From the IMG/VR virus record IMGVR_UViG_3300005805_009577, positions 96,001 to 160,000 of that record: 64,000 nucleotides of DNA; one strand, 5' to 3'. The notes under the pieces are model-generated. The model ran no database searches and had not been told where the DNA came from. It worked only from the letters and a program-made list of their open reading frames with translations. Shown in pieces: positions 1,824 through 48,057 of the stretch. The translations under genes and the position numbers were made by a program. The stretch comes from a virus. Each line of letters starts with the position of its first letter. Position 1 is the first letter of the stretch.

Positions 1824-1937
1824 TAAATATATGCTAAATTAAAAGACTTAATTACAAAATCCTTTTTTGAGTACGTCTTAGGATTGTAGCCGGTCGTGTG
1901 GCCGGAAGGATTATAACTCTTGATAATGAGGTGATTT

Positions 1938-2177
1938 ATGGCTCGTGTTGATGCTATGTCTTTTGTGGATGCGTGGGTTAAGATTTATGAGCAGGGTGGC
2001 TCGCAGAGTGATGTTGCTCGTGAAATTGGCACTTCGGCCGCCAATGTTTCTACTCGTGCTAAGAAGTTGCGTGAGGCCGGAGTTGATCTGCCTGAACTCA
2101 AGGTTACTCGTACTGGCACTACGATTGACGTTGATTCGCTTAACGAGCGTCTTTCGGCTCGACTTGCGAAGGCTTGA
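1938..2177 (+). CDS. small HTH DNA-binding protein, cassette family copy 1
   Basis: QSDVAREIGTSAANVSTRAKKLR fits an HTH pattern; GAGGTG RBS; motif at 1871; terminator downstream. Confidence 0.9.
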   Translation: MARVDAMSFVDAWVKIYEQGGSQSDVAREIGTSAANVSTRAKKLREAGVDLPELKVTRTGTTIDVDSLNERLSARLAKA

Positions 2178-2573: not shown

Positions 2574-2643
2574 AAGATTTAAGTGACGAGTCCTTTTTTG
2601 GGTACGCCCTCTCTTTACGCAGATGGTTTACTAGGAGACAAAT

Positions 2644-3993: not shown

Positions 3994-3999
3994 ATTTTT

Positions 4000-7924: not shown

Positions 7925-8006
7925 CATTGGGGTTAAAAGTCTTTCTTTGAGTACGCCCTCGTGTTGTCACCCGTGTTCTTTCTCACCTTAATTTAAAGGT
8001 ATAAAA

Positions 8007-9308: not shown

Positions 9309-9373
9309 ATTAAAACCTCTTTTTTGAGTACGCCCGTCTTTTGCCCCCTCGCTATATCTATAGGTAATATACA

Positions 9374-14603: not shown

Positions 14604-14736
14604 ACAATTGTGTGGGCAGCCCTTTTTTGGGTACGGTCGTAGGGGGAGCGGCTGAATAAGGGCGTGGAGTCGCCCCGAAAGATTTGCATTTATTCATTAT
14701 TTTTTTTAAAAATGCAAAACGAATAGGGGCGGAAAA

Positions 14737-20422: not shown

Positions 20423-20558
20423 AAAATGGTTTGTGGAATATAAAACATCTTAAAAAATAGGAATACAAAGTTACCGGACTTTTTTGGAGTACGCCCTCCT
20501 GTTATGGTCTGCGGTTTACGGCCAAGAAGTTTTTTTACTCTTACCTTTTAATATCAAA

Positions 20559-22921: not shown

Positions 22922-22988
22922 GTTTGATGGTCTTTTCGGGGTACGGCCGGTAGTTGGTAGTCGAGAGAACAATACAAGGAACATTAAA

Positions 22989-23323: not shown

Positions 23324-23396
23324 GGCCCCATAGTATAACGGTTCAGTATATCGGGCTTTCATCCCGAAGATCGGAGTTCGATTCTCCGTGGGGTCA
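23324..23396 (+). tRNA. tRNA-Glu(TTC)
   Basis: GGCCCCA/TGGGGTC acceptor, TCGGG-CT-TTC-AT-CCCGA, GTTCGA T-loop; no encoded CCA. Confidence 0.92.
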
Positions 23397-23522
23397 TTTT
23401 AAAAATTAAATTAAAAGGTTTAAACGAAAAGCCCTTTTCGGGGTACGGTCACTGGTTGACGATGGAAGGAAAGCCCGATATAATTAAAATTTTAAAGTAA
23501 AATAAAAACGACAAACAAAACT

Positions 23523-23595
23523 GGGTCATTAACTCAATTGGCAGAGTAGCTGGCTTTTAACCAGTAAGTTCTAGGTTCGAGTCCTAGATGACCCA
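23523..23595 (+). tRNA. tRNA-Lys(TTT)
   Basis: GGGTCAT/ATGACCC acceptor, GCTGG-CT-TTT-AA-CCAGT, GGTTCGAGTCC. Confidence 0.95.
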
Positions 23596-23711
23596 CTAAT
23601 TGAACCGCTGATTAAGTTCAGCGGAGTTTGTCGCGGGTATCAAACTATATTCAATAACCGTAGAGTTTATGGGGAAATTTCTGTAAGACTGAAATGTCCC
23701 TTTCTGGATAT

Positions 23712-24170
23712 ATGCGTAAAATAGTTTTTCTTGATGTTGATGGAGTTCTTAACGACCTTCATGTTCTTAGCACTAGAAGCGAACTAGGGACAGAACATCT
23801 TCTTAATTTTAAAAGCCTAGTACTTGCAACTAAGTGTGAAATTGTTTTAAGTAGTAGTTGACGAATAATTGAAGATTGGAAGCGAACTCTTAAACTTGCT
23901 TTTAAGGAACATAATATTCCTGTTTGGATAAGTGAAACTCCTAGATTAAACAGTACAGATTTCACAATAGTTCCAAGGCGAGATGAAATTTTACTTTGGA
24001 TAAATGAAAATATAACTGAACCTTCCAAAGTTATTGTATTGGATGATGAATGGGATGCTGATATAAATGGACACGGAATAAAGCATATAAAAGACAAATT
24101 TATACATACTAGCATGAACACTGGGTTGACACAAGATCACGTTAATATTGCTATAAGTTTTTTGTCATAA
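23712..24170 (+). pseudogene. HAD-superfamily (Swiss-army-knife RNA-repair-like) protein with in-frame TGA
   Basis: FLDVDGVLN...IVLSSS*R...RRDEI..W...VIVLDDE; TGA at 23859 sits at the family's conserved Trp (SSSWR). Confidence 0.85.
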
Positions 24171-24182
24171 GAAGAAAAAATT

Positions 24183-25335
24183 ATGAGCCATCCCGACCCA
24201 CTTTTTGATTATGAAAATTGTGAAGAAAACGATATTGAAGAAAGTGGAATAGACGGCATAGAAGGTTGCTACGACAAAAACGGATTATTTCACGAATACA
24301 TGAAAGAGGAAGGTTGGTACGGCCCTTTTGAGGAAAATAAATGAATTACTCTAACGAACACACAACAGATTGGGCTATTGGCGATAAAGATATGGAAACC
24401 ATCCTTTCTGCCCTTGAACATTATACAGAAAGCATGGTTAAGTTTCGTCATGTTCCCGGTATGCACGATTATATTACCTATGTTGAAGAATTGTGCCAAA
24501 GTATGGAAAATGCTTGGCATCCTAAACAAGAGGAAGAAAAATGAATACGAATGAAATTATTATTGATAAGATTATGGAAATCATTAAAGAAAACGATGAT
24601 TACACTGCTGCCGATGTAATCAAAAACATAATGCTTGAATTGGCAAGTGTTGGTGGAAATGTTGATCGAGAAGGCAGCGTCAATAGAACTATAGATATGG
24701 TTTGTGAAGAAACCTTTGGTTAAAAACATGGTTAAAATAAATTGGATAGGATTTGCTGGGGTAGAGAATATAAGAGACTTGTTGAATTATGGAACTAGAT
24801 TTAATAGTGGTGTGCCATATTCTTTTTTTCGAATTGGACCCATAATTATTAAAAAATATTTATAGGAAAAAACAATGACACGCGGAGAAATGATTGAGTT
24901 TGTTAATGACCAAACAGAAAAAACCGATAGAGAAAATGCTATCAGGCTGCTTGCGTATTTTCTTGAACACGACGACCCAGTAAATCCCGAGCTTTATTTT
25001 CAGCAAATGGTTGGCGGAGAATAATGGGAAATTATCACTACGATATATTACTTTTGCCGGTTATAGTCATGGCAATTATTGCATTGTTCACTAGCCTTAA
25101 TGATTATTAAATGAGAAATCCTAGTCAATTAATTAATATTCTAAATAATAGCAGCGGATCTGAGGGCTTTGAAAAGTTTGTCGATCAACTGACATTTGAA
25201 GAAATGACACAAATAATGATGATTGCAGAGTTGATTATCGAATGTCCTGAGTTGAGCAGTAAAAAGAATATTGATTTTAAAGAATTCTTAAATTATATGC
25301 AAAATAAGCGGAAAGCATTTATAGAAAAAAATTAG
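24183..25335 (+). CDS. run of small hypothetical ORFs (24183-24344, 24341-24544, 24541-24723, 25111-25335 and shorter ones)
   Basis: Overlapping ATGA start/stop junctions, co-directional. Confidence 0.65.
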
Positions 25336-35107: not shown

Positions 35108-35676
35108 TGGAACATATTTGCCACAAAATACAAGGATATTTTAATTATCCTGATTTATACACAAAAATAGCCCAAGAATTACCAGACGGATTTAAATTTG
35201 CCGAAATAGGAGTGTGGAAAGGATGTAGTTTAAGTTATTTTGTGGTAGAAGCAATTAATGCTGGTAAAAACTTTACAGCATATGCTATAGACACATTTGA
35301 AGGTAGTATAGAGCATCAAAAAGGACAATGGTGCCACGACCCTATAGTAAATACTAAAGATGGATTATACAATCATTTTTTAAGTAATATTGAACCAATA
35401 AAAGATAAAATAAAAGTATTACGAGGTAAAAGCACAGATGTAGCCTTAAGTTTCCCAGATGAATACTTAGACACTTTATTCATAGATGGTGCTCATGATT
35501 ATGACAGTGTATTAGCAGATTTAAAAGCATATTATCCTAAAGTTAAACGTGGATCTCCGATATATGGCCATGATCTTGATTGGGCAAGTGTAAGACAAGC
35601 AGTAATTGATTTCCGCAAAGAAAAAAATCTAACGCTAACTCCAGTTAGTCGCAGCAGTTGGAAATTAAGTAATTAA
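35107..35676 (+). CDS. class I SAM-dependent methyltransferase (Methyltransf_24-like)
   Basis: FAEIGVWKGCS, AIDTFEGS, FIDGAHDYDSV..D, GHD. Confidence 0.9.
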   Translation: MEHICHKIQGYFNYPDLYTKIAQELPDGFKFAEIGVWKGCSLSYFVVEAINAGKNFTAYAIDTFEGSIEHQKGQWCHDPIVNTKDGLYNHFLSNIEPIKDKIKVLRGKSTDVALSFPDEYLDTLFIDGAHDYDSVLADLKAYYPKVKRGSPIYGHDLDWASVRQAVIDFRKEKNLTLTPVSRSSWKLSN

Positions 35677-35785
35677 AACATTATTTAATTATTAACCTTA
35701 AAAGGTGTTTTTGGGGTACGTCTTAGCGTTGTAAGCCGACACTGGTTCGGTAAAAGACTGGAATGATAAATTTAGAGGTGATAAT

Positions 35786-36016
35786 ATGGCTAAGGTTGAC
35801 GCTGCTTCGTTTGTGGATGCGTGGGTTAAGATTTATGAGCAGGGTGGCTCGCAGAGTGATGTTGCTCGTGAAATTGGCACTTCGGCTGCTAACGTGTCGA
35901 ATCGTGCTAAGAAGTTGCGTGATGCGGGAGTTGATCTTCCCGAACTGACGATTACGCGTGGTGTTAAGCTTGACGTTGAGTCGCTTAACGCTCGGCTGAA
36001 GGCTCGGATTGGTTGA
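35786..36016 (+). CDS. small HTH protein, cassette family copy 2 (recombinant)
   Basis: Motif at 35716; GAGGTG RBS; 5' part identical to copy 1, 3' part identical to the 40977 copy. Confidence 0.9.
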   Translation: MAKVDAASFVDAWVKIYEQGGSQSDVAREIGTSAANVSNRAKKLRDAGVDLPELTITRGVKLDVESLNARLKARIG

Positions 36017-36035
36017 AATTAATCAAAGGGAATAA

Positions 36036-36084
36036 TTAGTCCCCGGGTTTTCCGCAAGGAGAACCTGGGGCTAACCCTTTATTT
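36036..36084 (+). terminator. GCAA-loop hairpin / terminator
   Basis: TTAGTCCCCGGGTTTTCC-GCAA-GGAGAACCTGGGGCTAA; near-copy at 41223. Confidence 0.7.
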
Positions 36085-36166
36085 ATTGCTAAAATATAAA
36101 GACCTTCTCTGGGTACGGCAGTCTGTTGTCAGGGACGGTAATAACAAACATATAAGAGAACCTACT

Positions 36167-36268
36167 ATGGCTATTATGTTTAGTTGGATGCTTTTGATTG
36201 CTATTATGGCTACCGTGTTCGGTGCGGTTGATTTTGCCTTTAGCGTAATCGACCGATACTTATCCTAA
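36167..36268 (+). CDS. micro membrane protein (33 aa)
   Basis: MAIMFSWMLLIAIMATVFGAVDF...; motif at 36113. Confidence 0.6.
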   Translation: MAIMFSWMLLIAIMATVFGAVDFAFSVIDRYLS

Positions 36269-36426
36269 TCTTTATCAGTTTCTTTTACTGATAATAGTTT
36301 TTGGAGTTTTTCGTATAGTTGGCCTACAGCACTCATGTCGCTTGCTTTAAAACATCCGCGTTGTGAAGCAGCGTCAATAATAGCAATAATGTTTCCAATG
36401 TCCTGATCGTTTAGTTGATTTTCCAT
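36265..36426 (-). CDS. small hypothetical protein (53 aa)
   Basis: IIAIIDAASQRGCFKASDMSAVGQLYEKL, a pattern I recognise from small phage proteins; below cutoff. Confidence 0.65.
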   Translation of the reverse strand: MENQLNDQDIGNIIAIIDAASQRGCFKASDMSAVGQLYEKLQKLLSVKETDKD

Positions 36427-36448
36427 AAAATAATATAGTTAAAAATTT

Positions 36449-36519
36449 CCTAGGTGGAAACCGGTAGGCAAGTCACTCTTATAAGGTGACGACGCAAGGT
36501 TCGACTCCTTGACCTAGGA
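36449..36519 (+). tRNA. tRNA-Ile(TAT), atypical D-arm
   Basis: CCTAGGT/ACCTAGG acceptor, TCACT-CT-TAT-AA-GGTGA, CAAGG-TTCGACT-CCTTG; D-arm short and poorly paired. Confidence 0.7.
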
Positions 36520-36532
36520 CTTAATATTTAGC

Positions 36533-36730
36533 ATGGATACAGCCGCATATAAACAACTCTACGATCTTTATGTTGTTGCTAAGTCTGAAACAAATAATTT
36601 AGACTATATCAACGAACTGATTGACCAAATTTTATTTTTTGGAACTGAGACAAACAAGTTGACCAAAACCCATGTTCAAGAACGACTTAAAGATGTGCTT
36701 GAATCTATTGAACGATCGCTGCTAAAATAG
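36533..36730 (+). CDS. hypothetical protein
   Basis: ORF between two tRNAs. Confidence 0.65.
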   Translation: MDTAAYKQLYDLYVVAKSETNNLDYINELIDQILFFGTETNKLTKTHVQERLKDVLESIERSLLK

Positions 36731-36738
36731 TTTAATAT

Positions 36739-36811
36739 GGGAGTATAGTCCAACGGCAGAGACAAAGGACTTAAAATCCTTCAAGTTCAGGTTCGAATCC
36801 TGATACTCCTA
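36739..36811 (+). tRNA. tRNA-Leu(TAA), short variable loop
   Basis: GGGAGTA/TACTCCT acceptor, AAGGA-CT-TAA-AA-TCCTT, TCAGG-TTCGAAT-CCTGA. Confidence 0.9.
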
Positions 36812-37034
36812 CTTATGCTAGTTCATTTAGAAAACGGTAAAACTTATAAAATAGTAGAATCTTGGATTAAAGAAAAGAAAATCTACTATCCTGCCGACAT
36901 ATTAGGTATGAATCTGCCCGAACCAAAACCCAGGTTCAAATTAACGCCTAAAGGAATTAAAATAAAAGAATAAGACTCTTGAATCATAAATTTTTTTCTG
37001 ATATAATATTTTCAATTATAGGAGAAAAAAGTTT

Positions 37035-37619
37035 ATGATGATTACGTTTAATCCTGGTAAAAATGAATTATTTACCATGGAGTTTAATCGAAGAGAAGAT
37101 TGGAATCAATATGTAGAAAGTTTTAATAAAGTTGGTGAGTTGCAGCCTCTCAACCATCCAGATCGTTTTCCTTGTGTTATGATTTACGATAATAATATTC
37201 TTCCGATAGATGCAGAACATAATAAGTACTATAACTTTTTCTTGTATTATTATGCGAATGCTTAAGTTGAGTCCGAACGACAGGTTGGTAATACTTTTAA
37301 TATTGTGGAATATTTACTTCTTAATAGCATTAAAATGAACAGCATTGATGAACTTGTATCAAAGGTTCGTGAAGAAATCACCAACCGAGATATTAAAATC
37401 TCTCAGCTTAATAATACCATTGAAAATATGTATAAGGCTTTGGCCAAGATTAAAATAGATCTTGATCGAAGTCTACGAGGTAAAAAGGATGTATTAAACA
37501 ATGCAATAGCAGCAGTTGAACTTGCTAGAAGCGTTACACCTTATCATAATTATTCAACAGGTCAAAATACTATTGACCAACCATATTCAGAAGAAGAAAA
37601 GAGTAAGATTTTAGAATAA
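37035..37619 (+). CDS. two hypothetical proteins (37035-37265, 37305-37619)
   Basis: AGGAG RBS on the first; second is coiled-coil-like. Confidence 0.65.
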
Positions 37620-37695
37620 TAAAATTAGCAGCCCCTTTTCGGGGTACGGTCTGATAACGGCCCGATAACAACCATCCCTTTCCGCGAGGATACTT

Positions 37696-37896
37696 ATGTT
37701 TAATTTTGAAGGTAAGGATTACGAGTTGATCGACGGCAACATTGTTGACAGCCGTACTTATCTTTTGGTTTGCAACGAAGTTGCTACCAAGATTTGTGAA
37801 ACTTTCGGCGTTACGATGAAGCAAGAGCAAACTTCGCGGGAAAACATCGACGTTGCTTTTCTGAACAGTCGGATTAAGAACAAGATTGGTGCTTAA
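37696..37896 (+). CDS. small hypothetical protein
   Basis: GAGGA RBS; motif at 37644; GC-richer codons. Confidence 0.8.
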   Translation: MFNFEGKDYELIDGNIVDSRTYLLVCNEVATKICETFGVTMKQEQTSRENIDVAFLNSRIKNKIGA

Positions 37897-37898
37897 TC

Positions 37899-38972
37899 AT
37901 GGATAACAAGTTCACACTATCATCTGAAAAACTTGAATCACGACGGCTGTGTAGTGTAACTAGAGACTTGCTTTATGTTCGGGTGCGGTTTAGCGATCAG
38001 GCTAACGCACCTGAAACTATAGAGACAAGCAACTTTATTGTGAACAAAACGGCAACTGCTATTCGAGATTTTAGTGGAGGACAAGTTAATCTTTCCACTA
38101 CTATACGAGATGTAACATTGCCGTATAGGGCAAGTTATTATGGCACTAATACTTACACAATTTCTAATCACGCTCAAAATATACTTCGTCAATCTGGACT
38201 GAACCTGAATAATTACGAACATAGTAATTTCAGGTACAACAGTCGTGCAGGATTTTTTGTAGGTTTAGGAGAAGTAGGCGGTAAGATTACTTGGACTAAA
38301 GACTCTGATCCGGGTACGCTTATTCATGAAATTGGACATAATTTAGGATTGCGTCATAGCAGTTTTGTTAATCCAAATAATAATGCTCATCCTTTTGGGC
38401 CAGGACGAACTTTTGAATATGGCGATGTATTTTCCAATATGGGTAATGCTCGTTATACCGATTGGAACGCAACTCAAAAGTGGGCTTTAGGTTACATTTC
38501 AAACAACAGTGTTAGAGCTGTAAATGCTAATAGTTTTAATATCGTTGTTAGCTCTCATGACAATGCAGCGTTTTACAATAAAAGCGAAGTATATCTAGTT
38601 AATATTCCTATTGGTGGTAACAATTCAATATATGCAAGTTACAGGCGTGATGCCGGCGGTGTTGTGATTCATGTTGGCAATAGTTTTAGGCCAACCGGCG
38701 ATACTTTAATTGACGGCAATCCGCAAACTGAATTGAGTACAGACGCTGCTCTTAAACTTGGACAGTCAATTACCAATTTTAGAAGGCCGGGAGTTAGCGA
38801 CGATATTAGAATTACTGTAACGAGCATTGTGGGCAATCGTGCAACCATTAATGTGAACTTCGGTGCAGTCGTACCTAAAATAGCTCATAATGCAAACTTG
38901 ATTGCTGCATTTGCAAGCATGGCAAACGAACCTGTAGAAAGATGCAAAATCAGATACCCTGTTAGGTTGTAG
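37899..38972 (+). CDS. secreted metzincin metalloprotease (M11/gametolysin-like) with planctomycete-type N-terminal motif
   Basis: HEIGHNLGLRH zinc motif, YGDVFSNMG Met-turn; EKLESRRLCS resembles the planctomycete extracellular motif. Confidence 0.85.
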   Translation: MDNKFTLSSEKLESRRLCSVTRDLLYVRVRFSDQANAPETIETSNFIVNKTATAIRDFSGGQVNLSTTIRDVTLPYRASYYGTNTYTISNHAQNILRQSGLNLNNYEHSNFRYNSRAGFFVGLGEVGGKITWTKDSDPGTLIHEIGHNLGLRHSSFVNPNNNAHPFGPGRTFEYGDVFSNMGNARYTDWNATQKWALGYISNNSVRAVNANSFNIVVSSHDNAAFYNKSEVYLVNIPIGGNNSIYASYRRDAGGVVIHVGNSFRPTGDTLIDGNPQTELSTDAALKLGQSITNFRRPGVSDDIRITVTSIVGNRATINVNFGAVVPKIAHNANLIAAFASMANEPVERCKIRYPVRL

Positions 38973-39062
38973 GTTTAAAACTTAAATAAAATTTCAAGAA
39001 AACTTAAAGCCCCTTTTCGGGGTACGCTCTTGAAATGTCGGAGAGTTTACAGGGAGATAACA

Positions 39063-39578
39063 ATGCAACGTAGAAACTTTATCAAAGGCTTACTTGCAAG
39101 TACAGTTGCAGGAACTTTTCCAGCAACGGCAGATGCAAGTGATAACGTTCAACTTAATCAAAGAATTGTAAATATTGCCCGTGGTGCGATTGGCAAGCCC
39201 GGTGGCAATCGTTACAATAGTTGGCTTTTTGGTTATAATGTTATGATGGCTGCTGGTGGTCGTGGGCCTTATCATGGCCCGCAAAACCAATATGCTTGGG
39301 GTAGACCAATAGGTTGGAATGAACTTGGCCCGGGCGATTATATTCAAATTGAATCGCCAACTGTTTTTAAAACCCCTCCGCCTAATTGTCGTGCATATTG
39401 GGGTTGTAGTGGACGTTGCACTTGGATTGTTTTAAACAGACAAAATGGTCGAGCACCTGGAAGCGTACTTAACATAGCGTATATGTATCGTGTGAACAGG
39501 GTGCAGGCTGCTAGGATTGACGTTTGGGATAGAACTTGTGGAAACCAAATATATCTTTACAGACCACAATTACGGTAA
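39063..39578 (+). CDS. Tat-signal protein, NlpC/P60/CHAP-like fold, catalytic residues apparently altered
   Basis: MQRRNFIKGLLA..ADA Tat signal; NQRIVNIAR..IG...AAGG..YAWGRPI....PGDYIQ; motif at 39022. Confidence 0.6.
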   Translation: MQRRNFIKGLLASTVAGTFPATADASDNVQLNQRIVNIARGAIGKPGGNRYNSWLFGYNVMMAAGGRGPYHGPQNQYAWGRPIGWNELGPGDYIQIESPTVFKTPPPNCRAYWGCSGRCTWIVLNRQNGRAPGSVLNIAYMYRVNRVQAARIDVWDRTCGNQIYLYRPQLR

Positions 39579-39618
39579 TTTTTAAATAATTTTAATAAAT
39601 AGTTCAAGGAGGATATTA

Positions 39619-39849
39619 ATGAGCGACCGTGATAGTGACAACCAAGAAAAAGAAAAGAAAAAAGTAAAGTTTAACAGCCGCTTTGCTCGTGCTGTTTTGT
39701 TCTATGTTGAGAATGAATATGAAATCGTAATTGAAGAAAAGAGCATTGAAATACAAAGAGCAGCGTTAAAGCTGCTTAAAGAACTAAAGGCAGGCGGAAA
39801 TAACGTTCCTAACACGGCACATGTGATTGCTTATAATATTCCCTTGTAA
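39619..39849 (+). CDS. hypothetical protein, distant paralog family B
   Basis: GGAGG RBS; FARAVLFYVENEY...NVPNTAHVI. Confidence 0.7.
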   Translation: MSDRDSDNQEKEKKKVKFNSRFARAVLFYVENEYEIVIEEKSIEIQRAALKLLKELKAGGNNVPNTAHVIAYNIPL

Positions 39850-40059
39850 TTACCAATGATGAATTATATTGGCTATTACAAATCCGCAAGTTATAAAATT
39901 AACTAGAACTATTATGAATCTGATACCTAGACTTATCAAAGCCATTTCTACGCTTAAAATAGGAATATCAGGTGTATCACTATCATTAGTTCCTATTCTA
40001 TAATCTATTGTTCTGGCTAATAATAATACAAATTTACTAGATACTAATTTTCTTAACAT
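39850..40059 (-). CDS. small membrane protein
   Basis: GGAGG RBS and a TATAAATA box upstream on the minus strand; C-terminal TM. Confidence 0.75.
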   Translation of the reverse strand: MLRKLVSSKFVLLLARTIDYRIGTNDSDTPDIPILSVEMALISLGIRFIIVLVNFITCGFVIANIIHHW

Positions 40060-40178
40060 AAATCCTCCTTGAATATTAGCTTCCTAATAGTATTTATAAA
40101 AAAGAAATAATAAAATTCAATCATCCTTTTCGGGGTACGGCTCTAGGATACTAGCCGGTAAAACCTGAGAGAAAAAAA

Positions 40179-40427
40179 ATGAACACTATTTATCCAAAAG
40201 GTGCATGGAACGTACGGATTAAGGCAAACATTGAAACTTTTCTTGATGCCTATTTGACGGTACTTAACAACGGTGGTAATTACGGCGATGTTGCTCGAAT
40301 TATCGGCTGTGAAATCATTGATGTTCAATTTGCAGAAGTGCGAATCCGTGCAAGCGGAGTTAAACTTCCTAGGCTGAATTTTACTGAGGAAAATGATGAT
40401 CGAGTTGTTATGCTGATGCAGTCATAA
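40179..40427 (+). CDS. small HTH protein, divergent cassette-family member
   Basis: FLDAY....NGGNYGDVARIIG....RASGVKLPRL; motif at 40135. Confidence 0.85.
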   Translation: MNTIYPKGAWNVRIKANIETFLDAYLTVLNNGGNYGDVARIIGCEIIDVQFAEVRIRASGVKLPRLNFTEENDDRVVMLMQS

Positions 40428-40465
40428 AAATAAATAAAAGACTATCACATTATATACCGATTATC

Positions 40466-40500
40466 AAATACACCCGGTCTTTCGACCGGGTGTATTTTTT
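40466..40500. terminator. intrinsic terminator, possibly bidirectional
   Basis: AAATACACCCGGTC-TTTC-GACCGGGTGTATTT plus T-run, between convergent genes. Confidence 0.85.
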
Positions 40501-40507
40501 TGTTTAT

Positions 40508-40852
40508 TTAAAAGTTTTTTGGGGTACGGTGTATTGACCAATTTTTATTAAACAAAAAAAGAAAAATTAATCCAGTGATTAAAAACAAGGTCGAATTAGG
40601 TTCAGGTACTGGCGTGGGTACCGGTTCTGGTTCTGGTGTTCTTAATATCATTGCTAAAAAATACATGCTTTGATCGCTGGCTACAACAGAAGTATCAGCA
40701 GTATAATTAAAACTTTCGCCAAGAAGTTCTAAAAAATGATCTACGTTATACTCAGAATATAAATCAAAAGGATCGCTATACCAATGATAGCCGTTAATAT
40801 ATGATCCTGATGCGTAGCCTATATTAAGCAAATCTATTTCGGCAGTTTCCAT
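40508..40852 (-). CDS. PEP-CTERM sorting-domain protein (start uncertain)
   Basis: PEPEPVPTPVPEPNSTLFLITGLIFLFLFNKNW: VPEP, TM helix, basic tail. Confidence 0.75.
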   Translation of the reverse strand: METAEIDLLNIGYASGSYINGYHWYSDPFDLYSEYNVDHFLELLGESFNYTADTSVVASDQSMYFLAMILRTPEPEPVPTPVPEPNSTLFLITGLIFLFLFNKNWSIHRTPKNF

Positions 40853-40976
40853 AGCCCACTCCAATAATATTATACAAAAAAATAAATTAATTAAAAGATA
40901 GAAATAAAGCCTCCTTTTTGGGGTACGTTTTGGGGTTGTGGTTCGATTGGTTCTAATAAACAGGAGACTGGTTAAA

Positions 40977-41204
40977 ATGCGAGTTGATGCTGCTACTTTC
41001 GTCGATGCTTGGGTCAGTGCTTTCGAAGCCGGTGGCAATCAGAGTGACGTTGCCCGTACGCTTGGTTGTAGTGCTGCTAACGTGTCGAATCGTGCTAAGA
41101 AGTTGCGTGATGCGGGAGTTGATCTTCCCGAACTTACCGTGACTCGTGGTGTTAAGCTTGACATTGAGTCGCTTAACGCTCGGCTTAAGGCTCGGATTGG
41201 TTGA
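40977..41204 (+). CDS. small HTH protein, cassette family
   Basis: AGGAGA RBS; motif at 40923. Confidence 0.9.
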   Translation: MRVDAATFVDAWVSAFEAGGNQSDVARTLGCSAANVSNRAKKLRDAGVDLPELTVTRGVKLDIESLNARLKARIG

Positions 41205-41222
41205 AATTAATATAGGGAATAA

Positions 41223-41262
41223 TTAACCCCTGGGTTTTCCGCAAGGAGAACCTGGGGGTTAA
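41223..41262 (+). terminator. GCAA-loop hairpin / terminator
   Basis: TTAACCCCTGGGTTTTCC-GCAA-GGAGAACCTGGGGGTTAA; near-copy of 36036. Confidence 0.7.
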
Positions 41263-41429
41263 CCCTTAATATTAAAAATACTTTTTGGGGTACGGAGGCC
41301 GTGTGCGGCCGGTTAAGGGGATCGTCAAGGGTGACCCGTGCGGCCGATATACCCCTTGACTTTTAATATAACTTAATTAATCAAAAATAATATGATTTAA
41401 TAAAATAATCAAAACTCAAGGATGGAGCA

Positions 41430-41792
41430 ATGATTAGTTTACCAAAGTTTGCAAGGAGGGGAATTTTGTTATATTTACAAATTGCGGCGGCTGTTGTTAG
41501 TCTTTTGCTTGGGCTTGCCCAAATGACAAAAGAATCACAACCATTAATTCAAAAGATGCAACAAAACCATCAACAGGCCGTTGCACAAAAACAAACAGAA
41601 AAAGCATGTCGCAAAGCATGTGAAATTGCAAACATGCAGATAGCATGGCAGTTTAGGGGGTACGATAGCAATTGGAGATATTATAGCGATCCTAGTGGAA
41701 GGTTTTGGGCTAGAGTTAATATTCAAGGCATATATGAGTATTGTGAAAGCCCGAATTATCAAATTGCAAATAACCCTATAACAATTCGTTAA
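41430..41792 (+). CDS. membrane-anchored hypothetical protein, paralog of 3030
   Basis: TM helix, Gln-rich linker, WQFRGYD..WRYYSDPSG..RVNI. Confidence 0.8.
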   Translation: MISLPKFARRGILLYLQIAAAVVSLLLGLAQMTKESQPLIQKMQQNHQQAVAQKQTEKACRKACEIANMQIAWQFRGYDSNWRYYSDPSGRFWARVNIQGIYEYCESPNYQIANNPITIR

Positions 41793-41793
41793 A

Positions 41794-42235
41794 ATGAAAA
41801 CTAAAAGCGAATATACAGTTCAATTTGATGAACATACGTTAAATCCCGAAGGACATTATTATATCCTTAAGGACGGCGAAACTTTAATGCTTCCAAAAAG
41901 CGATGGAAGCAAGTTACTTCCTACCTTTCCAACTAGAGCGGAAGCAGAAGAGTATATTCAATTAGTCAAAATACTAAGTTAAAATGACCATTGCTGAAAT
42001 TATATACCAACTGAGCAAGTTTGACCCGAACACTAGGGTTGTTGTTGATGGTTACGAGGGAGGTTTCGATGATCCTAGAATCGTTGAAGAAACTGCCATC
42101 ATTGACGCTAACTGGACTGTTGTTGATAAAGGGCGTGGAACCGAAGGCAAACGGCATAATTGGAATGGCCGTCATGATTACGGTACTTGTTACACTGAAT
42201 GTCATAATACTAAAGTAATTCTTATAGGAAGATAA
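41794..42235 (+). CDS. two small hypothetical proteins (41794-41982, 41984-42235)
   Basis: Abutting ORFs; second has LSKFDPNTRVVVDGYEGGFDD. Confidence 0.75.
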
Positions 42236-42291
42236 ATCAAGAATCATGCTGGTTTAAATAAAGAATCCTTTTCGGGGTACGGTATTGAGTT

Positions 42292-42505
42292 GCGGCTGGT
42301 TAAGAGACTCTTGACTCCCGCTAATTTTTAATTATAATAAGAAGATATTCAGTTATGACCACGTAACGGAGGGTACGTTAGAAGTTAAGGACTATGGGCC
42401 TTACACGAACTCCTACTGAATATCCTGCAATACAAAGTTAATAAAACGCCACCGCCAACACTCCGAAAGCACTAACCAACAGTTGCGATTAGGGGTGACA
42501 GGCGT
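42292..42505 (+). ncRNA. candidate structured RNA region
   Basis: Hairpin 42292-42321; GATATTCAGT/ACTGAATATC stem (42344-42424) with inner hairpins; element 42446-42505; no ORF. Confidence 0.5.
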
Positions 42506-42607
42506 AAAAAAATAATAAATTAAATTAACCAGTATCATTAAAAAGTCTTTTGGGAGTACGTCCTAAGGTTGTGGTGGTTACGACCCGCGAAACCGGAGCA
42601 TAAAACA

Positions 42608-42832
42608 ATGCAACTTACATTCGAAGAAAAGACCCTGAAGTATCTTGATGGCGTGAACATCAACATTGACCTTGGAACTTTCATTGACGAATATATGAAG
42701 GCTTACAAGGCCGGTCAGACTAAGGCTGAACTTGGCGAGACGCTTGGCATCAATCATATTGAAGTTGCGATTATTGTTGACAAGATGGCTAGTTTCGGTG
42801 TGAAACTTCCCCAACTTCGGATTCAGATTTAG
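42608..42832 (+). CDS. small HTH protein, divergent cassette-family member
   Basis: TFIDEYMKAYKAGQTKAELGETLG....SFGVKLPQL; GGAG RBS; motif at 42556. Confidence 0.8.
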   Translation: MQLTFEEKTLKYLDGVNINIDLGTFIDEYMKAYKAGQTKAELGETLGINHIEVAIIVDKMASFGVKLPQLRIQI

Positions 42833-42847
42833 TTTAACAAAACCCCA

Positions 42848-42892
42848 ACGCCAACACCCCGAAAGCACTAAGTTACAGTGCGACTAGGGGTG
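42848..42892 (+). repeat. second copy of a structured element (first at 42452-42497)
   Basis: CGCCAACACYCCGAAAGCACTAA...AG(T)TGCGAYTAGGGGTG in both. Confidence 0.75.
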
Positions 42893-42924
42893 GAAAACAC
42901 TTGTGAAAGGGTTTGTGAAGCAAA

Positions 42925-43134
42925 ATGAATCAAACCTATAGCATTCGTATCATTTTCGATGGAAGCAAATATGATACTACGCTTATCTCAGGGTTTACTT
43001 ATAAGCAAGCATTCGAATATGCTCGTAAGTGTGTAACAAAAGAGATTAATTATCTCTTGTTCTCTGGTCGGAATGTGAACATATACGTTGAAAATGATTT
43101 GGGAAAAAGGCTTGCAACTTACTACGTATATTAA
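42925..43134 (+). CDS. small hypothetical protein
   Basis: ORF flanked on both sides by TTGTGAA pairs. Confidence 0.7.
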   Translation: MNQTYSIRIIFDGSKYDTTLISGFTYKQAFEYARKCVTKEINYLLFSGRNVNIYVENDLGKRLATYYVY

Positions 43135-43165
43135 ACTTTTTGTGAAAACATTTGTGAAGAGTCAG

Positions 43166-43263
43166 TAAAAACACTAAAAAAAGCCTAAAAAACACTAAAA
43201 AAAGCCTAAAAAAGCTTAAAAAAAGCCAAAAATAAGCTAAAAAACAAGCCAAAAAATGAAAAA
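43166..43263. repeat. phased A-tract tandem repeat (about 10-11 bp period)
   Basis: AAAAACACT-AAAAAAAGCCT-AAAAAACACT-AAAAAAAGCCT-AAAAAAGCTT-AAAAAAAGCC... Confidence 0.85.
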
Positions 43264-43437
43264 TATACTCAATATACTTGCTATTTTAAGTACATTAACA
43301 CTCAATGGAAGTGAATTTGGATGTACTCTTTGGGCAAATTTAACATTGTTTAGGTTCTAATTGAAAGTTAACCGCACCTTTTAGCGGTACGGTAACTGGG
43401 TGTGACGGTTGGAACTAACCCCTAGGAGAAGGTTAAC

Positions 43438-43665
43438 ATGCGAGTTGATGCCAACACTTTCATCGACACTTGGTGCGACGTTTACGACAACGGTGGAAAT
43501 CAAAGTGACGTTGCAAGGCGTTTAGGTTGCAGTGCGGCTAACGTAAGTAATCGTGCAAAGAAACTGCGTGATGCCGGAGTTGATTTGCCTGAATTGACAG
43601 TTACTCGTGGTGTGAAACTTGATATTGAAAGTCTAAACGCAAGGCTGCGTGAACGAATCGGTTAA
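43438..43665 (+). CDS. small HTH protein, cassette family
   Basis: AGGAGA RBS; motif at 43387; near-duplicate of 44304. Confidence 0.9.
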   Translation: MRVDANTFIDTWCDVYDNGGNQSDVARRLGCSAANVSNRAKKLRDAGVDLPELTVTRGVKLDIESLNARLRERIG

Positions 43666-43842
43666 ATAAATATACCGAAAGTTATACCCGGAGTAAAATC
43701 CGGGTATAACCGTTTATATTAAAAATCCTTTTAGAGGTACGGCAGGATAGAACAAGTTTGTGAACTTACTTGTGAAGGTTAAAACAAACTTGTGAAACCT
43801 TTTCGGAGTACGGCTACGGGTTAACCCCGGAGAAATATACCA

Positions 43843-44031
43843 ATGAGCCAGCGAGTTAAAGAGCAAATGAAACGTGATGCTGAAATTCACGCTAACGGCC
43901 GGTTTACTCCACGAGATAGAGAAGATGTTAATCGTATTGTGGAGATACTTGTGAACCGGCAATTTGCCGTTAGGGTATCATCAGAAGTTGAAACCCAAGT
44001 AAACGAAACGATCAAAGAAATAATTAATTGA
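43843..44031 (+). CDS. small hypothetical protein
   Basis: GGAGA RBS; motif at 43808; palindrome downstream. Confidence 0.8.
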   Translation: MSQRVKEQMKRDAEIHANGRFTPRDREDVNRIVEILVNRQFAVRVSSEVETQVNETIKEIIN

Positions 44032-44108
44032 GAGAAAAGATTATACCTAGGTTAAACTGGGTATAATCGTTATAATTACAAATTGTTTTTGGGGTACGGC
44101 AAAAGGTT

Positions 44109-44227
44109 GCTAAGCCGCCTATGAATAGCACTCGTTAGGTAGTTCGGATGGGCGACAACTAACGATAAAAGCGGATAGTTATATTACTTGTTTCTCCGTG
44201 AGTAATATAATGAAATATAACGGAGAC
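44109..44227 (+). ncRNA. candidate structured RNA
   Basis: TCGTTAG/CTAACGA and TTATATTACT/AGTAATATAA stems; alternative TCTCCGT/ACGGAGA pairing; follows motif 44094; no ORF. Confidence 0.45.
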
Positions 44228-44303
44228 TATATTTTAAAAATTAAAAGTTAATTTTGGGGTACGGTAACTGGGTGTGATCGGTTAACCCTTGGAGATAACA
44301 ATC

Positions 44304-44534
44304 ATGGCACGAGTTGACGCTGGCAATTTCATCGAAGTGTGGTGCGACGTTTACGACAACGGTGGAAATCAAAGTGACGTTGCCCGTAAACTGGGTTGCA
44401 GTGCGGCTAACGTAAGTAATCGTGCAAAGAAACTGCGTGATGCCGGAGTTGATTTGCCTGAATTGACAGTTACTCGTGGCGTTAAACTTGACATTGAAAG
44501 TTTGAATGCCCGGCTGCGTGAACGAATCGGTTGA
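44304..44534 (+). CDS. small HTH protein, cassette family
   Basis: GGAGA RBS; motif at 44259. Confidence 0.9.
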   Translation: MARVDAGNFIEVWCDVYDNGGNQSDVARKLGCSAANVSNRAKKLRDAGVDLPELTVTRGVKLDIESLNARLRERIG

Positions 44535-44620
44535 AAAAAGTGTGAACGCGAGTTATACCCGGAGTAAAATCCGGGTATAACCGTTTATATTAAAAAACCT
44601 TTTAGGGGTACGGCTATAGG

Positions 44621-44650
44621 TTGACAATTTGATTGGTAATAAAGTATAAT
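44621..44650 (+). promoter_or_regulatory. consensus sigma70 promoter fused to a motif copy
   Basis: TTGACA-18-TATAAT; its TTG is the N8-spaced TTG of motif 44608. Confidence 0.6.
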
Positions 44651-44715
44651 TAAAAAAAAGATTACTATTGGCTTTTAGGGGTACGGTAGGTTGACGTCTC
44701 ACAGGAGAAAACGAA

Positions 44716-44784
44716 ATGTATAGGTATTACGTTGATTGCCTTGGTCGAGTTTACGATATACAGACGGGATTAAGAATCAAGTAA
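44716..44784 (+). CDS. micro-protein (22 aa)
   Basis: AGGAGA RBS; MYRYYVDCLGRVYDIQTGLRIK; motif at 44681. Confidence 0.7.
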   Translation: MYRYYVDCLGRVYDIQTGLRIK

Positions 44785-44867
44785 AGTAGGCAAAACTTTT
44801 TTGCCGACGACAGTTGTCTTTTTGGGGTACGTTGAGACGGTGGGTTCAGTCGTCCAGGAGAAACATC

Positions 44868-44942
44868 GTGCGAAATGCAGATAAGGCGATTTTGGCGGTT
44901 TCATTCATCATGGGCATTATCGTCGCTATTATAATCGCCTAA
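44868..44942 (+). CDS. micro membrane protein (24 aa)
   Basis: AGGAGA RBS, GTG start; MRNADKAILAVSFIMGIIVAIIIA; motif at 44827. Confidence 0.7.
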   Translation: MRNADKAILAVSFIMGIIVAIIIA

Positions 44943-45058
44943 AAGAAGTTATACCCTAGGATAAGCCTAGGGTATAACCGTTGATACTACGAAACCTTTT
45001 TTGGGTACGTTATCGGGGTGTCGCCGGTTGAGAGCGACAAACTAACGGAGAAAAAGAA

Positions 45059-45289
45059 ATGGCACGGGTTGACGCTGGTAGTTTCGTCGATGCTTGGATG
45101 GATGCTTATGACAAGGGTGGCAATCAGAGCGACGTTGCTCGTACGCTTGGTTGCTCTGCCGCGAACGTTTCGAACCGTGCTAAGAAACTTCGGGAAGCCG
45201 GGGTTGACCTGCCTGAACTTCAGGTTGTGCGGGGCGTCAAGTTGGATATTGAAAGCCTGAACGCTCGTCTTAAGGCGAGGATCGGCTGA
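45059..45289 (+). CDS. small HTH protein, cassette family
   Basis: GGAGA RBS; motif at 45005; near-duplicate of 46098. Confidence 0.9.
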   Translation: MARVDAGSFVDAWMDAYDKGGNQSDVARTLGCSAANVSNRAKKLREAGVDLPELQVVRGVKLDIESLNARLKARIG

Positions 45290-45368
45290 TAACAAAAGTT
45301 ATACCCGGGGTAAAACCCGGGTATAACCCTTTACACACATATACCTTTTTGGGGTACGGCAAGAGGGC

Positions 45369-45452
45369 ATGGATACTATCATCGCTATTACGTTTGCTTT
45401 CGTCGGTGCCGGGTTTATAGGCAAGTATCTTTGGAACGAAATGGAATATTAA
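45369..45452 (+). CDS. micro membrane protein (27 aa)
   Basis: MDTIIAITFAFVGAGFIGKYLWNEMEY; ATG begins 11 nt after motif core 45354. Confidence 0.65.
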   Translation: MDTIIAITFAFVGAGFIGKYLWNEMEY

Positions 45453-45522
45453 ACGAACGGCTACAGCCGCCAAGGCGATGCCGGTCTTTTCGGGGTACGG
45501 CGGACATGAGGAGGGCAAAGCG

Positions 45523-45645
45523 ATGCCTCTAGTAAGTGCAATCGTCTTCTTATTAATCCGTAGCGTATCTGCTAGGCTATATCGGATTAGCCAGGTTCGT
45601 TCTGAACCGGTTTATCCAGTTCTTATCGGAGCAAAAGGAAGGTAG
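45523..45645 (+). CDS. micro-protein (40 aa)
   Basis: GAGGAGG RBS; motif at 45495. Confidence 0.55.
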   Translation: MPLVSAIVFLLIRSVSARLYRISQVRSEPVYPVLIGAKGR

Positions 45646-45649
45646 ACCC

Positions 45650-45757
45650 ATGACTATAGATGAAGCAATGGCATTTAGTTTCGTTCGTTATGGCATTATG
45701 TCTTACGAAGAATTCCTAGTATGGCTAGCAAAACAGCAGATAGTAAAGGCTAGCTAG
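45650..45757 (+). CDS. micro-protein (35 aa)
   Basis: AAGGAAGG RBS; MTIDEAMAFSFVRYGIMSYEEFL...; palindrome follows. Confidence 0.6.
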   Translation: MTIDEAMAFSFVRYGIMSYEEFLVWLAKQQIVKAS

Positions 45758-45854
45758 GTAGATTACACCCTAGAGAAAATCTAGGGTGTAATCCTAACAA
45801 TCCCCTGAGCTTTTTGGGGTACGTTACAGGGTTGTCTCAAGGAGGATGACAACA

Positions 45855-46019
45855 ATGGAAACAGCAGTTAGCATCGCGGTTATGATGGGAGTTGGATTTG
45901 CGGCTGCCCTTGCACAAGTTATTTCGGACATGATGGAAGAAAAGGCCATTGTCCGAAACAACGAAGACAAGGCTAGGATCATCATGGAAGAATACGAAGA
46001 ATATACGGAGGGGGTATAA
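45855..46019 (+). CDS. small membrane protein (54 aa)
   Basis: GGAGGA RBS; TM helix plus acidic tail; motif at 45819. Confidence 0.7.
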   Translation: METAVSIAVMMGVGFAAALAQVISDMMEEKAIVRNNEDKARIIMEEYEEYTEGV

Positions 46020-46097
46020 CATACCCTTATCTGACCTAGAACCTTTTTGGGGTACGTTACAACATCGTGGTCGATAACACTAACTGGAGAAAAAGAA

Positions 46098-46328
46098 ATG
46101 GCACGAGTTGACGCTGCTAACTTCGTCGATGCTTGGATGAACGCGTATGAGAACGGTGGCAATCAGAGTGACGTTGCCCGTGACCTTGGTTGTAGTGCTG
46201 CGAACGTCAGCAACCGGGCTAAGAAACTTCGGGATGCCGGGGTTGACCTGCCTGAACTGACCGTCACGCGGGGCGTCAAGTTGGATATTGAAAGCCTGAA
46301 CGCTCGACTGAAGGCTAGGATCGGTTGA
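46098..46328 (+). CDS. small HTH protein, cassette family
   Basis: GGAGA RBS; motif at 46052. Confidence 0.9.
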   Translation: MARVDAANFVDAWMNAYENGGNQSDVARDLGCSAANVSNRAKKLRDAGVDLPELTVTRGVKLDIESLNARLKARIG

Positions 46329-46436
46329 ACCTAAGTTATACCCTAGGGAAACCTAGGGTATAACCCTTTACATGCATATACCTTTTCGGGGTACGGCAAG
46401 GGTATGTGGATCGGTTAACCCTAGGAGAAAAGAATC

Positions 46437-46679
46437 ATGCGGACACGAAAGAGTCGTATCAGCGTTCAGCGTTTCGTTTCGACTTGGTGCCGGGTGTATC
46501 GTCAGGGTGGCAATCAGGATATGGTTGCAAAGGCTCTGCATTGCACCGGTGCTAACGTCAGTATTCGTGCCAAGGCTTTGCGTAAGAGTGGCGTGAAGTT
46601 GCCACCGCTGAATCCCGGTCGGGTTTATGACACGGCTGTTGTGAGAATGAACAAAGACATTGCGGAAATGATTGGATAG
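46437..46679 (+). CDS. small HTH protein, divergent cassette-family member
   Basis: GGNQDMVAKALHCTGANVSIRAKALRKSGVKLP; AGGAGA RBS; motif at 46391. Confidence 0.9.
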   Translation: MRTRKSRISVQRFVSTWCRVYRQGGNQDMVAKALHCTGANVSIRAKALRKSGVKLPPLNPGRVYDTAVVRMNKDIAEMIG

Positions 46680-47008
46680 TTCCTAGGGTGGTAACGGTGC
46701 CGGGGTAACTAAGGCAACCGTTACTAACTCATAACATTAAGGAAAAATAAAAAGCAAAATTAAAAAATAAATAAAATAATTTTACAAAGTTAAATAAAAA
46801 AATCAAAACTAAGAAAAAACCTGGAGCTATTAGGGGTACAGGGACCCCGGAACTGCCATTACAGCCTTTCTTTTTATTAAACCCTATCTTTTTTCGTCCA
46901 CACCCTATATTGGCTTGTAATGAATTTCTATTGCGTTTATTACAAAATTAATCTAAATGGTCGCCTGCACAAGTCCCTACAACCTAAAAAAATTAGAAAA
47001 TCGTTTTT

Positions 47009-47246
47009 AAAAAAATCGCGGCGGCCTATTTTTTAATTATACTAAAAGGTTAATTTGTCATAAGTCTATATTTATCAAATACTTACGGCGAGCAGGAAAA
47101 ACTATCTTGTCGTAAGTCTATATTTCACAGCACTTTACGTAAAATTAATCAAAAAGTTCAATAAAAACCGCTACACAACCGTCCAGAAACTGAAAAAAAC
47201 ATAAAATCAAATTTCAAAAAATCGCGGCGGAGGATTTTTTAATTAT
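47009..47246. repeat. nested repeats in a non-coding junction
   Basis: AAAAAATCGCGGCGG-NNN-ATTTTTTAATTAT at ~47010 and ~47215, enclosing TTGTCRTAAGTCTATATTT...ACTT(T)ACG at ~47055 and ~47107. Confidence 0.75.
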
Positions 47247-47261
47247 ATGCCAGGGTTTAAT

Positions 47262-47856: not shown

Positions 47857-48057
47857 ATGAAGAATCTTGGAAACGTTTGTTTTGTGGCCGGATTTGTAAG
47901 CAACGTTTGTTTTGTGGCCGGATTTGTAAGCATAGTCGCCAGCATTGCTATTTGGTTTCTTGCCAAAACACCAGATCCAGCTCATGGTGAAAGATTTGGA
48001 ATATTTGTTGGGTTATGGGCACCTACTTTCTTTGCCCTTAGCAACAGATTAAAATAA
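47857..48057 (+). CDS. small membrane protein with an in-frame 30-bp tandem duplication
   Basis: HGERFGIFVGLWAPTFF; NVCFVAGFVS twice (47872-47931). Confidence 0.8.
   Translation: MKNLGNVCFVAGFVSNVCFVAGFVSIVASIAIWFLAKTPDPAHGERFGIFVGLWAPTFFALSNRLK

Follow-up and report, generated by a model that had tools for sequence, protein, structure and literature searches.

Are the small genes that crowd positions 40100-46730 of the viral DNA examined here carried by autonomous promoter-gene-terminator modules, and are these modules gained, lost and exchanged? The DNA, called the window in the following, comprises 64,000 nucleotides and represents bases 96001-160000 of one 181,145-bp viral contig (IMG/VR record IMGVR_UViG_3300005805_009577; 30.5 % GC). 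A sequence-only reading had described the region as an array of small-gene cassettes, each headed by a GGGTACG motif, that are shuffled by recombination. We consider it probable, though far from settled, that the array consists of terminator-promoter cassettes similar to the promoter-early stem-loop (PeSL) elements of T4-type phages, located in a hyperplastic early, host-takeover-like arm of an uncultured large phage and controlled by a signal other than a sigma70 promoter. The anatomy of the proposed modules, i.e. motif, leader with a Shine-Dalgarno sequence (SD), small gene and hairpin, was borne out by strand, spacing, covariation and recurrence in four related lineages, whereas promoter and terminator activity are predicted from this anatomy.

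A strand-specific bipartite motif

The motif has the consensus T-tract (CCTTTT), one free base, GGGGTACGG, 8 nt and KTG. The window contains 29 exact copies of GGGTACG, where 1.3 would be expected, and the whole contig 36; every one of them is on the plus strand. A position weight matrix (PWM) built from the sites recovered 50 plus-strand and no minus-strand sites on the contig. KTG, the second box in the proposed grammar, stands exactly 8 nt past GTACG at 24 of these 50 sites, compared to a background of 3 %. None of the 35 strong sites falls within a plus-strand open reading frame (ORF) of at least 80 aa, although this arm is 70 % coding. The site density is 2.26 per kb at 35.7-46.4 kb of the window, 0.18 per kb in the rest of the plus arm and zero beyond it. 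Within 40100-46730, the 20 copies first counted correspond to 18 exact GGGTACG, two of them chance-like (41658, inside an ORF; 42371, without T-tract), and to 21 PWM sites once the one-mismatch variants at 42554, 43385, 43735 and 43806 are included. Units measure 71-831 nt, so that the lower end of the predicted range of 70-500 nt stands and the upper end does not. The same cassette type does occur singly at 1.9 kb and 35.7 kb, while the leader CGGTTAACCC..GGAGA, said to be frequent, is complete only twice. A 16-mer motif scan of IMG/VR gave only single chance matches in unrelated contigs, and the metagenome-wide scan, among the matches listed, likewise.

Genes preceded by the motif include tRNA genes and rIIA, and the motif is also placed behind a bidirectional terminator; start codons follow at a median distance of 43 nt. 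An SD can begin 8 nt after the motif and the ATG of one unit follows after 10 nt, therefore any transcription start must lie at the 3' edge of GTACG. The sequence upstream of the motif is A-rich (0.43 A versus 0.37), and the motif itself is palindromic only over GTAC. From strand, intergenic placement, two-box layout and position before genes we infer that the motif is a promoter. Near-consensus sigma70 promoters also occur (32 versus about 14 expected, six perfect), and in three places such a promoter directly follows a motif copy, the TTG of which doubles as its -35 box. The motif itself lacks a -35/-10 pair, and at most sites no -10 box can be made out at a suitable spacing; thus it represents a signal class separate from the canonical promoters. 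TACGNT within the motif was considered as a sigma70-type -10 box and dropped, as T is present at -7 in only 23 of 50 sites. A sigma70-like promoter also distinguishes the window from the related contig L034: window 3920-4000 contains about 46 nt with TTGAAA-16-TATAAT before the gene 4000-4608 that are lacking in L034:4497-4564.

Hairpin and composite element

In the window and in the four related lineages GTACG is preceded, at a nearly constant distance of 26-28 nt, by the end of a 12-14 bp hairpin. When 22 distinct elements were aligned, 12 of 12 stem pairs showed compensatory changes. The stems are perfect, without extrahelical bases, the loops are mostly of the GNRA type and a short TTT follows the stem; two hairpins were folded and yielded -20.5 and -22.7 kcal/mol with z scores of about -5. 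GNRA loops and covariation argue for selection of the hairpin as RNA and point to a role as leaky terminator or 3' stabiliser that would directly abut the control signal of the next unit. Hairpin and motif are one composite element. The suggestion that ORF-less units encode structured RNAs was not supported: the fold z score reaches -2 only in the unit at 41288, and weakly. Two ORF-less units carry near-perfect sigma70-type promoters instead.

Genes of the array

The dominant cargo is a family of helix-turn-helix (HTH) proteins with ten members in the window. The eight predicted for 40100-46730 were recovered as seven close members and a divergent one (42608-42832; hhalign probability 96 %). 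Paralogs are 75-82 aa long, the divergent member 74 aa. An AlphaFold2 (AF2) model of the protein encoded at 45059-45289 (predicted local distance difference test score, pLDDT, 86) has a tri-helical HTH plus a C-terminal helix, and Foldseek retrieved for it only generic HTH regulators at E values of at least 0.07. Ratios of nonsynonymous to synonymous substitution rates (dN/dS) range from 0.05 to 0.33 with the proportion of synonymous differences (pS) mostly saturated; to judge from the sequences, the paralogs are old and under purifying selection. The N-terminal helix is more variable than the rest (ratio of nonsynonymous to synonymous proportions, pN/pS, 0.46 versus 0.22).

The micro-ORFs of 22-54 aa are present as described, most with an SD; those of 24-54 aa include hydrophobic products, and ORFans occur beside them. 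Comparison of the cargo to PHROGs and Pfam assigned no family. The cargo was rightly called GC-richer: array genes have a GC content of 0.446 and bulk genes of 0.299, at third codon positions 0.388 and 0.227. Array and bulk genes differ in the shares of AGA among Arg codons (0.11 versus 0.69), TTA among Leu (0.13 versus 0.45), ATA among Ile (0.14 versus 0.50) and AAA among Lys (0.39 versus 0.79); these codons are decoded by the phage-encoded tRNAs Arg-TCT, Leu-TAA (two genes), Ile-TAT and Lys-TTT. Genome-wide, the codon index has a median of 0.30 for motif-headed genes and 0.61 for others (p = 7e-8); the sigma gene, like genes downstream of sigma70-type promoters, falls into the bulk class. 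Because motif-headed genes avoid the codons served by phage tRNAs, their translation, on the simplest reading, would draw on the host tRNA pool, either ahead of the phage tRNAs or irrespective of them, i.e. early.

Related lineages and plasticity

A search of IMG/VR with one HTH protein yielded no related loci. In a large protein collection, 63 cluster-level homologues, all metagenomic, were obtained and their contigs were compared. The architecture recurs in four related lineages, where numerous sites on one strand precede small genes and tRNAs, e.g., 30 GTACG on the plus and one on the minus strand of L038. Each lineage has its own version of the upstream motif around an invariant GGTACG, and three contain tandem ORF-less motif copies 46-73 nt apart.

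The duplications of whole units proposed for the window were confirmed: 43381-43742 and 44251-44613 are 85.1 % identical over 363 nt, about 44995-45380 and about 46042-46410 are 84.9 % identical over 324 nt, and an identical tract of about 46 nt covers hairpin and spacer in duplicated units. Tracts of 62-86 nt are identical between cassettes of the window (p < 0.0005), in one case between cassettes separated by 34 kb, and indicate that gene conversion between cassettes is probably ongoing. The comparison with related contigs confirmed that the region is not fixed and colinear. L034 is colinear with the window over 1-13.5 kb, whereas the array region is mosaic in L043, L033 and L046. L040 differs from the about 99 % identical L038 and L039 by exactly one unit of 432 bp (motif, leader, 82-aa HTH gene and hairpin), and this indel has its junction within a direct repeat of 144 nt that comprises hairpin, motif, spacer and motif. 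A motif-headed four-gene block of 1.39 kb in the window is absent from L034; its left junction is about 20 nt upstream of the motif and shows 6-nt microhomology. Gain, loss and exchange of modules are thus backed by both indels, mosaic order and identical tracts. One junction between lineages follows a hairpin without a motif.

Two further differences were noted between L038 and L039. The copy number of a 60-nt tandem repeat varies (L038:14733-14949, L039:6173-6509). A 31-nt deletion in L038 (10169-10260; L039:1579-1700) removes the upstream half of the motif before a tRNA gene and may be regarded as a natural promoter-knockout variant.

Comparison with known systems

The contig is about 78 % complete according to CheckV, hence about 22 % of the genome is missing. 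It encodes rIIA, a rIIB-like protein, an HNH endonuclease, RNA and DNA ligases, PcfJ-like proteins, sugar-modifying enzymes, a single sigma70-family protein (contig 23328-24230) and 14 tRNAs, those in the window at 23324, 23523, 36449, 36739, 50514, 53658 and 55200; an Rfam scan of the window detected tRNAs only. The largest ORF has 736 aa. The standard genetic code fits the contig, and stop-codon recoding was rejected as cause of the short ORFs. The array had no blastn match among 50,697 phage records. The closest phage protein matches are 25-40 % identical, e.g., to the RNA ligase of a 735-kb uncultured phage, and there is no close cultured relative. Core structural and replication genes of T4 were not seen in the 181 kb.

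The closest known system are the PeSL cassettes of T4-type phages (Arbiol et al. 2010, PMC2839356; Comeau et al. 2014, PMC4122927). Both systems have composite elements of about 50-80 nt, of predicted terminator/promoter function in the array, that are repeated in the tens in hyperplastic regions upstream of small ORFans. Close relatives differ by indels or replacements whose junctions fall in the elements, and the phages on both sides carry rIIA/rIIB and tRNAs. PeSL promoters match the E. coli sigma70 -35/-10 consensus and have an AT-rich upstream region, and the position of their stem-loop is variable, within or around the promoter (PMC2839356). PeSL stem-loops are stable and serve as terminators or attenuators, and recombination among PeSL elements is reported to give rise to encapsidated mini-circles. 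In the array, the signal is a non-sigma70 bipartite motif (GGTACG, 8 nt, KTG) with only the A-rich upstream region in common, the hairpin keeps its fixed offset of 26-28 nt upstream, and its terminator role is predicted from structure. Motif versions particular to each lineage and one HTH family as dominant cargo are further differences, and the phage is not demonstrably T4-type. The analogy drawn by the sequence-only reading fits with regard to function, since the proposed role is likewise to insulate small early genes and to allow modular shuffling, and this reading was also correct that PeSLs have a different motif and different cargo; the elements are set apart from PeSLs proper because the defining sigma70-consensus promoter is absent.

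Clusters of very small early genes with strong SDs and frequent promoters and terminators on one strand also characterise the SPO1 host-takeover module and the early regions of T7 and T5. Those regions use host sigma-A/sigma70 consensus promoters, and we know of no conserved hairpin-promoter composite or multi-copy HTH family in them. The promoters of the T7, T3 and SP6 RNA polymerases are long, highly conserved, strand-specific and abut the start site; they resemble the motif in combining an invariant core with a lineage-specific upstream part, without sequence similarity to it.

Interpretation of the element

In the cassette model favoured here, a GNRA-capped RNA hairpin with a short U-tail would either stabilise 3' ends or terminate transcription leakily. 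It would be followed by a bipartite promoter peculiar to the phage (T-tract, GGTACG, 8 nt, KTG), with GTACG 26-28 nt past the hairpin. RNA synthesis would begin at the 3' edge of GTACG or immediately beyond it, and each element would drive one small gene or short operon with a strong SD, the cargo being ten HTH DNA-binding paralogs, membrane micro-peptides, ORFans and tRNAs, and elsewhere on the contig rIIA. Since elements and HTH genes are dispersed repeats, homologous recombination could convert, delete, duplicate and reshuffle the units. The array genes are presumably expressed early.

Several observations weigh against this model. The 432-bp unit indel could be an assembly collapse of the 144-nt repeat. 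The ends of homology blocks were not significantly enriched at motif edges, in a test dominated by cross-matches of paralogs, and as substrates for recombination the paralogous HTH genes are no worse than the motif. The hairpin tails have only about three T, and termination may be weak. The GC-rich codon usage could have causes besides timing. Regarding the machinery, no beta or beta' subunit and no MotA homologue were found in the contig at its present completeness; a T7-like RNA polymerase (PF00940) was not found in the 181 kb either, where the search control also gave no match. The only sigma gene of the contig is AT-rich, belongs to the bulk codon class and lies inside an operon without the motif, which weakened a scheme in which a phage sigma factor is made first and then reads the motif. 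The reader of the motif is most likely host RNA polymerase together with a phage or virion factor; the alternatives are the sigma factor of the contig or a polymerase whose gene lies outside the assembled portion.

The rival that fares best, unlikely as a full account but compatible with the cassette model, takes the motif mainly as an operator that is bound by the HTH family and switches early units on or off, the promoters being weaker flanks read by host sigma70 polymerase. All HTH genes have a motif copy ahead of them. A recognition helix that hardly varies among 51 HTH members of all four lineages is paralleled by the constant GGTACG core, which is compatible with binding of the motif by the family, and the predicted fold is that of a generic DNA-binding protein. 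Moreover, the three motif copies that share their TTG with a consensus sigma70 promoter occupy a typical activator or repressor position. However, most sites show no discernible -10 box where one would be expected, T in the putative -7 position is as infrequent as stated above and the SD can start 8 nt after the motif; the motif is also not palindromic beyond GTAC.

It is rather improbable that the motif is the site of a host factor, an alternative sigma or transcription factor, by which the early genes are wired to a host regulon. This would agree with the lack of a detected phage polymerase and with a phage sigma gene that looks non-early by its codon class. The upstream motif half, though, differs between close lineages while the geometry is kept, which looks like co-evolution on the phage side, and no known sigma consensus fits. 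Sigma54 promoters, in the textbook consensus, have GG and GC boxes with a strict -24/-12 spacing, and KTG 8 nt after GTACG is 3-4 nt further away than this allows.

A little less credible still is the speculation that the HTH family itself is the specificity factor of the GGTACG promoters, a minimal sigma-region-4-like protein redirecting host RNA polymerase, whose about ten self-promoted copies would form a self-amplifying early circuit. If so, the motif versions of the lineages would be co-evolving promoter dialects that isolate related phages transcriptionally.

We regard it as doubtful that hairpin and motif act only in RNA, with long polycistronic early transcripts, started at a small number of promoters further upstream, being cut or stabilised at each element, as at the RNase III sites between the T7 early genes, and the motif being a processing or 5' untranslated region signal. 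The RNA-level selection of the hairpin, the location of all elements on the transcribed strand and canonical sigma70 promoters that could supply long transcripts are in line with this. Yet the motif is conserved as sequence without covarying structure, with two boxes at a rigid 8-nt spacing, as is usual for DNA sites recognised by proteins; the motif is moreover found at the head of units that follow convergent terminators, and ahead of tRNA genes, and the tandem ORF-less copies would make little sense as processing sites.

Integron gene cassettes lack promoters, end in attC sites with extrahelical bases and adjoin the gene of an IntI tyrosine recombinase. An integron-like system with site-specific recombinase sites is very hard to reconcile with the data: the cassette layout, the imperfect palindromes between small genes and, by eye, a loose resemblance of the hairpin arms to attC core sites are outweighed by the absence of a tyrosine or serine recombinase (PF00589, PF00239), hence of an IntI-type enzyme, from the 181 kb of the incomplete contig with positive controls, by units carrying their own promoter-like motif, by perfect stems with RNA-type loops and no extrahelical bases, and by the 144-nt homologous junction of the observed indel.

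Feature positions and neighbouring sequences

The first HTH gene of the region and the minus-strand ORF 40508-40852 are convergent and have a bidirectional terminator in common; in L043 a similar minus-strand gene (1206-1535) follows the orthologous HTH gene. The weak motif copy in this ORF would drive an antisense RNA through it. The phased A-tracts at 43167-43254 occupy an intergenic gap inside the array and are a classic signature of intrinsically bent DNA. The array-end element has non-coding counterparts (L038:11375-11560, L039:2815-3000, L046:7700-7834), its block containing GTAC, GGGACCC and a T-run. No stable RNA fold was obtained for 46745-46880, and the element may be a terminal terminator or a DNA site. 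Just beyond the array, an AT-rich strand-switch region contains a 77-nt direct repeat pair (46965-47247) and a perfect 30-nt tandem duplication (47872-47931). The cumulative GC skew peaks in this region, which may be an origin or genome-end region.

Table 1 Features of the motif-headed cassettes and their surroundings in window coordinates
Position	Strand	Feature	PWM score or remark
35663..46880	+	dense cassette array, 26 motif sites, ~2.3/kb	35.7-kb cassette to conserved array-end element
1861..1875	+	motif site (variant GAGTACG) heading HTH gene 1938-2177	27.9
1938..2177	+	HTH paralog, 79 aa; classical terminator after it at ~2208-2245	
2592..2606	+	motif site heading 1.39-kb four-gene block (~2580-3965) absent from L034	35.7
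7941..7955	+	motif site (variant)	24.3
9318..9332	+	motif site (variant) before PcfJ-like gene 9374-10789	26.6
14621..14635	+	motif site	35.3
20479..20493	+	motif site (variant)	25.3
22931..22945	+	motif site	37.5
23433..23484	+	motif site; downstream TTG is -35 of sigma70-like promoter TTGACG-17-TATAAT before tRNA-Lys 23523-23596	46.6
35706..35720	+	motif site heading HTH gene 35786-36016	35.5
35786..36016	+	HTH paralog, 76 aa	
36041..36070	+	13-bp hairpin, GCAA loop, after HTH gene 35786-36016	
36103..36117	+	motif site; tRNA-Ile 36449 and tRNA-Leu 36739 downstream	39.2
37634..37648	+	motif site heading 66-aa gene 37696-37896 and 357-aa metallopeptidase-like gene	35.5
39012..39026	+	motif site heading genes 39063-39578 and 39619-39849	39.4
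40125..40139	+	motif site	33.1
40179..40427	+	divergent HTH paralog, 82 aa	
40466..40497	.	14-bp bidirectional intrinsic terminator between convergent genes	
40514..40528	+	weak motif copy over 3' end of minus-strand ORF 40508-40852; function doubtful	18.0
40913..40927	+	motif site	40.7
40977..41204	+	HTH paralog, 75 aa	
41223..41262	+	18-bp hairpin, GCAA loop, 28 nt before GTACG	
41280..41294	+	motif site; 80-nt GC-rich leader (fold z = -2.05), then operon 41430-42235 (120, 62, 83 aa)	38.9
42267..42281	+	motif site, ORF-less unit	44.7
42311..42338	+	near-consensus sigma70-type promoter (11/12) within ORF-less unit	
42546..42560	+	motif site (variant GGAGTACG)	32.6
42608..42832	+	divergent HTH family member, 74 aa	hhalign probability 96 %
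42925..43134	+	ORFan, 69 aa	
43167..43254	.	phased A-tract array, period 10-11 nt, ~8 copies	
43377..43391	+	motif site (variant GCGGTACG)	29.5
43438..43665	+	HTH paralog, 75 aa	
43681..43710	+	12-bp hairpin, free energy -20.5 kcal/mol, z = -5.1, 27 nt before GTACG	
43727..43741	+	motif site (variant), first of tandem pair	23.5
43798..43812	+	motif site (variant) heading 62-aa gene 43843-44031	27.3
44039..44068	+	12-bp hairpin, 26 nt before GTACG	
44084..44098	+	motif site, 165-nt ORF-less unit	36.2
44249..44263	+	motif site	33.1
44304..44534	+	HTH paralog, 76 aa	
44552..44581	+	12-bp hairpin identical to 43681-43710	
44598..44612	+	motif site, 73-nt ORF-less unit	42.6
44621..44650	+	perfect sigma70 consensus promoter (12/12); -35 is the motif's downstream TTG	
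44671..44685	+	motif site heading 22-aa ORF 44716-44784	28.1
44817..44831	+	motif site heading 24-aa hydrophobic ORF 44868-44942	29.6
44948..44978	+	13-bp hairpin, 27 nt before GTACG	
44995..45009	+	motif site	44.8
45059..45289	+	HTH paralog, 76 aa (AF2-modelled)	
45298..45327	+	12-bp hairpin, free energy -22.7 kcal/mol, z = -5.0	
45344..45358	+	motif site; 27-aa hydrophobic ORF 45369-45452 starts 10 nt after it	42.3
45485..45499	+	motif site; SD 8 nt after it; ORFs 45523-45645 (40 aa), 45650-45757 (35 aa)	26.6
45761..45793	+	14-bp hairpin, 26 nt before GTACG	
45809..45823	+	motif site heading 54-aa membrane-type ORF 45855-46019	38.7
46042..46056	+	motif site	34.1
46098..46328	+	HTH paralog, 76 aa	
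46335..46364	+	13-bp hairpin, GAAA loop, 27 nt before GTACG	
46381..46395	+	motif site	44.6
46437..46679	+	divergent HTH paralog, 80 aa, last array gene	
46745..46880	+	array-end element: AT-rich stretch, then GTAC-containing block and T-run; conserved in three lineages	

Implications

Until now, the shuffling of small genes by composite elements was documented in T4-type phages, whose elements follow the host sigma70 consensus; here, cassettes of this kind would operate in an unrelated clade of uncultured large phages with a different control signal. This suggests that element-based shuffling is a general, convergent way to evolve early-gene repertoires. The motif, the GC-rich host-like codons and the phage tRNA set together may allow a separation of temporal gene classes in uncultured phages by sequence only, and the regulon of about 50 sites offers an experimentally accessible route into what may be a new way of taking over transcription.

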